Positions 8,538 to 8,915 of a DNA stretch of 12,048 nucleotides are shown here, one piece after another. The position numbers were made by a program, and so were the translations under genes. Each line of letters starts with the position of its first letter. Within the stretch, counting starts at the first letter, position 1. Where the stretch lies: positions 1 to 12,048 of the IMG/VR virus record IMGVR_UViG_2534682338_000009; one strand, 5' to 3'. Under the pieces are notes generated by a model that saw only the letters and a list, made by a program, of their open reading frames with translations, was not told the DNA's origin and made no database searches. Source of the DNA: a virus (Duplodnaviria > Heunggongvirae > Uroviricota > Caudoviricetes).

Positions 8538-8915
8538 TTACAGGTTATCTATTAAATTACAGTTGGTGAAAGTCATATATATCGCATTATCAGTAATACC
8601 GATCATATATACAGGTTTTTTCTCGTATTCATATATATAAATGTAGTCGGGGGTATTTACGCCCATGGCAAACAATCTACCATTGACTTGCTTTAGTGGT
8701 TTGTATGTTACCGATTCAGTGCCAAAGTTACTTGACACATTTCTATTATCGATACTTATATACCCCGATTGATTGAATGAATCGAGGGGGATGTTACGCT
8801 TACCTACTTCCTTAAACATATATACATCGCACCGATATAGTCCGTCGTTAGCAAGTTCTACATTTGCCAGTACAGAAGGGACGATGAATATTAGAGCCAG
8901 TACTATTTTTTTCAT
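8538..8915 (-). CDS. Hypothetical secreted (periplasmic) protein with cleavable signal peptide
   Basis: 125-aa ORF with ATG start. N-terminus MKKIVLALIFIVPSVLA followed by NVELAN fits a Sec signal peptide with an AxA-type cleavage site. Two Cys (in YRCD and TNCN) could form a disulfide. No family recognised. Confidence 0.6.
   Translation of the reverse strand: MKKIVLALIFIVPSVLANVELANDGLYRCDVYMFKEVGKRNIPLDSFNQSGYISIDNRNVSSNFGTESVTYKPLKQVNGRLFAMGVNTPDYIYIYEYEKKPVYMIGITDNAIYMTFTNCNLIDNL

Follow-up and report, generated by a model that had tools for sequence, protein, structure and literature searches.

The gene analyzed here lies on the minus strand of a 12,048-nt stretch of viral DNA (hereafter the window; Caudoviricetes, IMG/VR record IMGVR_UViG_2534682338_000009, positions 1 to 12,048) and encodes a protein of 125 amino acids (aa), referred to below as the target. 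Our analysis suggested that the target is a sequence-orphan, small secreted accessory protein of a prophage, that it is probably built on a scaffold resembling that of the lysozyme inhibitors MliC and PliC, and that its family is tiny. With a rough probability of 0.4, we regard it, in terms of broad class, as a periplasmic binding or inhibitor protein that would be clamped by a disulfide and would protect the lysogen. The original prediction had described a signal-peptide protein with two cysteines and had put it forward as a possible inhibitor or immunity protein of the periplasm, carried as prophage cargo. The description was borne out in full, and the proposed role was consistent with all findings presented herein, although the fold match that bears on it proved not to be specific.

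The protein opens with MKKIVLALIFIVPSVLA, is continued by NVELANDGLYRC, with which the putative mature part begins (NV), and ends with FTNCNLIDNL. Its N-terminus displayed the features of a signal peptidase I (SPase I) substrate, namely, a basic n-region (MKK), an h-region of 9–10 residues (IVLALIFIV) whose Kyte–Doolittle mean over 9 residues reached up to 3.8, and a c-region (PSVLA) that obeys the -3/-1 rule with Val at -3 and Ala at -1. The later hydropathy maximum of the protein was only 1.0, and no second hydrophobic segment was present. Based on the hydropathy, the -3/-1 rule and the retention of APSVLA across the relatives, export by the Sec machinery followed by cleavage after Ala17 was predicted. 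The signal peptides of the family members were 76–100% identical, even when their mature parts were only 10–40% identical. A lipobox Cys was absent, since the cleavage region reads VLA followed by N and the first Cys is residue 29; in this respect the target departs from the exclusion lipoproteins of the Cor/Llp type. The protein contains exactly two cysteines, C29 and C119, located 90 residues apart.

The ratio of nonsynonymous to synonymous substitution rates (dN/dS) calculated by the Nei–Gojobori method was 0.107 between the target gene and its 85%-identical copy in the related element L003; between these two elements, the genes for terminase and portal gave values of 0.04–0.15. The target gene is under purifying selection, and this value, together with the homologues found in the same prophage slot, demonstrated that it is a real gene. 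Comparable coding support (dN/dS, homologues and invariant cysteines) was lacking for the overlapping plus-strand open reading frames (ORFs) at 8485-8640 and 8773-8934. The coordinates of the target gene and of the related features are summarized in Table 1.

Table 1. Features of the target gene and its surroundings in the window
Feature	Position	Strand	Basis or remarks
Coding sequence of the 125-aa secreted protein	8538..8915	-	ATG 8913-8915, TAA 8538-8540; ORF list and sequence
Signal peptide, residues 1-17 (MKKIVLALIFIVPSVLA)	8865..8915	-	Predicted SPase I cut after A17
Mature domain, residues 18-125 (108 aa, isoelectric point (pI) ~5.0)	8541..8864	-	Predicted eight-stranded antiparallel beta-barrel
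Cys29 codon (TGC)	8829..8831	-	Predicted first beta-strand, 25-37
Cys119 codon (TGT)	8559..8561	-	Predicted last beta-strand, 112-123
Immediate upstream region	8916..9060	-	Weak GGA Shine-Dalgarno ~10 nt before ATG; one sigma-70-like match
Decayed 3' remnant of the 126-aa lipoprotein gene	9061..9230	-	blastn and multiple alignment A4
Old-family ATPase/TOPRIM nuclease	6315..8135	+	Pfam AAA_15, OLD-like_TOPRIM; PADLOC Old E = 1.4e-74

Two independent AlphaFold2 runs, using alignments of 10 and 15 sequences, gave predicted local distance difference test (pLDDT) scores of 83.7 and 86.0, respectively. Both models agreed on eight main strands in up-and-down order, the first of which carries C29 and the last C119. 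In the second model, each 10-residue block of the mature domain past residue 20 showed a pLDDT of at least 87. The modelled eight-stranded antiparallel beta-barrel is thus of the MliC/PliC type, as is the predicted placement of the cysteine pair on strands 1 and 8. These two cysteines were the only invariant mature residues when 15 family sequences were aligned. We infer that C29 and C119 form a disulfide that would clamp the barrel shut. A Foldseek search against the PDB returned nothing below E = 0.036. The original prediction had named two outcomes as speaking against itself, a lack of signal-peptide cleavage and a confident match to an unrelated housekeeping fold, and neither was encountered. 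Against BFVD, Foldseek found only unnamed phage signal-peptide proteins and lipoproteins, with template modelling scores (TM-scores) of approximately 0.55.

A predicted barrel also brings to mind two other kinds of protein. First, the target might be a calycin-like binder of small molecules or lipids, comparable to lipocalin, FABP or YceI, rather than an inhibitor of proteins. We consider this rather improbable, since the mature chain has 108 residues as opposed to the approximately 150–180 aa of lipocalins, whose C-terminal helix is missing from the predicted barrel, and since ligand cavities are usually conserved, whereas only the cysteines are invariant here. Second, it might be a mini outer-membrane beta-barrel like OmpX, PagL or NspA that alters the cell surface. 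The prospects of this reading are very slim: natural eight-stranded outer-membrane barrels comprise at least 148 aa, as compared with just 108 aa in the mature target; the family C-termini (DNL, IIE or TKE) offer no aromatic beta-signal; and the conserved cysteine pair and the acidic pI of 5.0 fit a soluble protein.

The target was 99% identical to protein P0001 encoded by Escherichia coli assembly GCA_024675775.1, and the window itself was 99.8% identical to contig L001 of that assembly. Homologues sharing 18–99% identity fill the same genomic slot. Searches of 5.8 billion and 1.84 billion proteins yielded only about 17 clusters, all unnamed, and an exhaustive phmmer search of the 1.84 billion representatives found just 4 real relatives; a further candidate, P0005, was discarded as a low-complexity repeat protein. 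The hosts of the family are Escherichia, Citrobacter and Enterobacter, and every member examined belongs to the same prophage lineage, in which its gene lies upstream of that for the small terminase. Pfam, NCBIfam, PHROG and PADLOC offered no model for the target, the Pfam scans having covered the target at E <= 1 and all 10 members of alignment A2 at E <= 10; the one PHROG match, to Spackle at E = 0.15, fell on the signal peptide only. Neither tblastn nor megablast against 50,697 phage records detected a homologue of the target, and megablast of positions 8300-9100 against 5,426 complete E. coli genomes gave no match. In the related prophages L024-L031, whose small terminases are 76–86% identical, no close homologue (defined by tblastn at E <= 1e-4) was found. 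Very divergent counterparts were recognized in the same region of L025, L027, L030 and L031; all four have a signal peptide as well as LKCDV and, C-terminally, NC. Not even such a counterpart was recognized in L024 and L026.

Comparison of the variants at the DNA level showed that homology enters from the left, breaks after the first 41–79 codons of the target gene, and resumes one to four genes downstream. The target gene therefore forms the left edge of a hypervariable slot, which sits between the genes for the 126-aa lipoprotein and the small terminase. What follows the target gene downstream varies among the relatives: a gene for a 152-aa lipoprotein, another paralogue of the family, or a gene for a 232-aa protein. 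As for the proteins, the identity between P0007 and P0008 was 93% for the N-half and 28% for the C-half, and that between P0008 and P0010 was 69% for the N-half and 100% for the C-half. The two halves assort independently, i.e., the target gene recombines. Tandem paralogues were present in L006, L017, L018 and L020; for example, the paralogue types P0007 and P0006 (approximately 24% identical) stand in tandem in L006 (9599-10387) and L020 (4412-5188) and bear the same signal peptide. Altogether, the target gene is an accessory prophage gene, variably present and located in a variable slot. It can be classed as a moron, because close homologues are absent from L024-L031 and the breakpoints flank or lie within the gene.

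Downstream of the target, the variable slot of the window is filled by a stand-alone gene for a nuclease of the Old family, which is convergent with the target gene; the same pairing was seen in L016/L021. In the relatives, 152/157/218-aa or 232-aa genes stand in place of the Old gene. The possibility that the target and Old operate as one system was rejected, because no Old gene adjoins the 85%-identical copy in L003-L005. The intervening DNA contains a perfect 14+14 palindrome (8148-8175) after the Old stop codon. Between the convergent 3' ends of the two genes, the heptamer TACTCAT forms an array of 9.3 perfect tandem copies (8262-8326). The near-identical L016 has 10.3 copies, which indicates that the copy number is polymorphic; the array has no apparent function, and an Rfam scan of the window identified no RNA family. 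The neighbourhood also bears on another possible role, that of an immunity protein which would counter a toxin acting in the periplasm, for example a bacteriocin or an amidase/muramidase effector of type VI secretion. This was judged quite unlikely: no cognate toxin gene was recognized adjoining the target at approximately 30 loci, the neighbours had no toxin matches in Pfam, PHROG or PADLOC, and the family members sit in one prophage lineage instead of secretion-system or bacteriocin loci.

The original prediction had also granted the gene its own upstream region and a transcription unit probably separate from the lipoprotein operon, which held only in part. The 225-aa lipoprotein gene farther upstream ends in a terminator-like hairpin (10118-10093), and this gene and the target gene are thus probably transcribed separately. 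The stretch of 320 nt that precedes the target gene, however, includes a pseudogene remnant of its former operon partner and does not constitute a dedicated regulatory region. The remnant was 73% identical to L015 21048-21226 and L006 9247-9425 by blastn. A sigma-70-like site (TTGCCA-17-TATGAT, 9045-9017) is partly kept in L016, but it was not above chance, as the promoter scan gave 20 sites against 18.8 expected from shuffled sequence. With respect to the other genes of this region, the 87-aa ORF (9235-9498, minus strand) covers no more than the C-terminal portion of a 172-aa gene that is conserved (L015 18298-18816). Upstream of it, a cassette within 9473-10809 (minus strand), which takes the place of five genes in the relatives, encodes the 225-aa lipoprotein (phrog_1353, E = 1.8e-66, no function assigned) and a 177-aa multi-pass membrane protein.

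In the intact relatives, the 126-aa lipoprotein gene is followed by an ORF for a membrane peptide of 28-55 aa and then by the target gene, with overlapping stop and start codons. These ancestral partners (L003 9457-10001; L015 20852-21399) are a 125/126-aa lipoprotein, whose lipobox reads TTGC, and a membrane peptide of 55 aa with a single pass. In most relatives, a stop codon cuts the peptide down to 28 aa. Neither partner matches any family. In the window and L016, the lipoprotein gene has been reduced to its 3' remnant and the membrane-peptide ORF is gone.

Such an arrangement could mean that the target is a component of the lytic programme, forming an envelope complex with the lipoprotein and the membrane peptide and serving, for example, in lysis timing, envelope remodelling or help with release, and is not a host-protective moron. 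Indeed, the three genes are translationally coupled, share the late-gene strand and immediately precede the packaging genes (L003 9457-10393), and the adjacency of lipoprotein and target recurs even in the very divergent L025 (6164-6944). Nevertheless, this interpretation appears doubtful, because the recognizable lysis genes (GH24 endolysin, at 7371-7823 in L019, and membrane proteins) are located at the far right end of the prophage, because related prophages exist that have no close homologue or, as L030, a lipoprotein without an adjacent homologue, and because the target remains intact in the window and L016 despite the degraded lipoprotein and peptide genes. Moreover, tandem duplication and half-gene shuffling would be unusual for a structural lysis component. 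Membership in a lysis cassette upstream of terS, as in lambdoid phages, was ruled out given that the lysis genes are at the other prophage end. A spanin was likewise rejected: the lipoprotein encoded upstream lacks a transmembrane segment at its C-terminus, and the target is no coiled-coil protein.

The prophage carrying the target is approximately 32.5 kb long and siphovirus-like. Its genes specify a large serine recombinase, a terminase of the GpA type, a portal of the lambda type and a protease-capsid fusion. Members of the lineage, including the relatives L015 and L019 (NZ_CM135810.1 117657-150157), are inserted in yegD, which is split by them, or beside msyB. The lineage was found in 2 of the 5,426 complete E. 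coli genomes, and its portal protein was less than 30% identical to anything in the 50,697 phage records. Annotation together with the Pfam and PHROG scans revealed no recognizable replication genes in the lineage, and a literature search on it returned nothing relevant. The lineage, whose hosts are Enterobacteriaceae, is rare and uncharacterized. Positions 1 to approximately 197 of the window are the end of IS1414 (IS256 family), which occurs at 97–99% identity in thousands of E. coli records, and homology to the intact prophages ends at 190, within the gene for the protease-capsid fusion of approximately 620 aa (166-1602). The prophage in this strain is thus probably defective; the target has been kept intact even though the capsid gene is cut by IS1414 and the upstream lipoprotein partner has decayed. 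Within 3500-5864 of the window (minus strand), the large-terminase ORF (TTG start at 5422) overlaps the 3' end of the small-terminase gene (5295-5864) by about 128 nt, and PGAP annotates a similar overlap in L015 (24213-24782 and 24664-26577).

Taken together, the data are consistent with the following scheme for a protective periplasmic protein. The target would be exported by the Sec machinery and, as its sequence suggests, cut by SPase I after Ala17, whereupon the mature chain of 108 residues is predicted to fold into an up-and-down eight-stranded beta-barrel. A Cys29-Cys119 disulfide made by DsbA would then clamp the barrel shut, as in MliC, PliC, the adhesin complex protein of Neisseria (ACP) and Brucella PhiA. 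The protein most likely binds another periplasmic protein. The more conserved N-terminal sheet may serve as a scaffold or may touch a conserved partner, for instance the lipoprotein encoded next to it, and the hypervariable, recombining C-terminal sheet may set the target specificity. In the lysogen, the protein could thereby block an incoming muralytic enzyme or the periplasmic entry step of a superinfecting phage. For this protective role, Spackle of phage T4 provides a functional precedent and MliC, PliC and ACP provide a structural one; the adjoining defence nuclease Old was also counted in its favour.

Several observations weigh against this interpretation. The structural matches of the PliC type align only about 75 of the 108 mature residues, and the match to MliC/PliC was no better than those to Cap15, de novo barrels and GrlR. 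Most relatives carry the target gene on the late-gene strand, coupled to the lipoprotein and small membrane peptide genes, an arrangement that would suit a function in the lytic cycle of the phage itself just as well, and the mosaicism may merely reflect the position of the gene in a recombination hotspot. In MliC/PliC, the motifs SxSGAxY (SGxxY) and YxxxTKG enter the active site of lysozyme (PMC5507604, PMC8334348). Both motifs, visible in MliC and PliC, were absent from the target and from every family member. An hhalign comparison of alignment A2 with an MliC/PliC mini-alignment gave a probability of 0.5% and E = 0.11, albeit with the low power of a mini-alignment made from three PDB sequences. 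Furthermore, PhiA, a motif-less member of the fold, caused no inhibition in vitro (PMC8334348), so that the fold by itself does not predict activity.

At the thresholds given above, no Pfam match to MliC (PF09864) was obtained for the target or for the 10 members of A2, and a profile search of the PDB at E <= 10 retrieved no MliC/PliC chain. A relationship to MliC/PliC by sequence or profile was not upheld. In view of these failed profile and motif tests, the target is at best a works-like candidate of the MliC/PliC class, not a member of the family. A narrower proposal is that it nonetheless belongs structurally with MliC/PliC/ACP and truly inhibits lysozyme, binding a peptidoglycan hydrolase and blocking its active site. 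The enzyme would be a c-type lysozyme of animals or a GH24 lysozyme of phages (for example, a tail enzyme or an endolysin). ACP, which has the same fold and disulfide without the motifs, does inhibit lysozyme (PMC5507604; PMC8334348). We hold this narrower proposal to be unlikely.

It is conceivable, though improbable, that the target represents an overlooked class of phage-borne periplasmic inhibitors on the MliC/PliC/ACP scaffold, with a constant N-sheet and an exchangeable C-sheet as specificity cassette, the cassette being swapped by intragenic recombination and the family expanded by tandem duplication. Were this the case, prophages could retarget exclusion to different incoming phages or muralytic enzymes. 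More generally, if the target is an inhibitor, the half-gene shuffling would offer a simple natural system for the re-assortment of specificity in a periplasmic defence protein. As things stand, it is a well-supported hypothetical secreted protein of modest immediate value, and its position flags a hotspot of a rare prophage lineage at which defence genes, Old among them, build up.

Among known systems, the Ivy lysozyme inhibitors carry a CKPHDC loop motif; the target sequence contains neither CKPHDC nor CxxxxC, and no Ivy match was found in Pfam. Periplasmic immunity proteins of type VI secretion (e.g., BtaiB, PDB 9jdd_B) differ from the target, which has no adjacent effector gene, no secretion-system locus and no sequence similarity to them. 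The C-terminal barrel of Cap15 (7n34), GrlR (4kt5) and de novo barrels (6czj) either are cytoplasmic or were designed, and they have neither a signal peptide nor a disulfide on the terminal strands; the likeness of the target to these small meander barrels is one of topology only.

A close architectural parallel is MliC/PliC (PF09864; PDB 2f09, 3f6z, 3oe3, 4mir), whose fold is an eight-stranded barrel with a beta1-beta8 disulfide (PMC5507604). The target is predicted to share this architecture including the cysteine pair on the terminal strands, with only about 70% of its mature domain being superposable; it is phage-borne, hypervariable and mosaic, whereas MliC/PliC is a conserved chromosomal gene. 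The same position of the barrel-clamping disulfide as proposed for the target occurs in ACP (PDB 6gq4) and PhiA (PDB 7dpy). The functional model is T4 Spackle (phrog_1586), a periplasmic, disulfide-bonded phage protein that brings about superinfection exclusion by inhibiting the tail lysozyme (PMC7677548). Like the target, Spackle is small, phage-encoded and equipped with a signal peptide, and the above-mentioned profile match between them covers residues 1-33, i.e., the signal peptide and not the mature protein. Spackle is an alpha-helical bundle, highly conserved and encoded by a lytic phage, in contrast to the target, which is predicted to be all-beta. If the target indeed acts as an inhibitor, it would constitute a beta-barrel, prophage-encoded counterpart to both T4 Spackle and the chromosomal MliC/PliC inhibitors.
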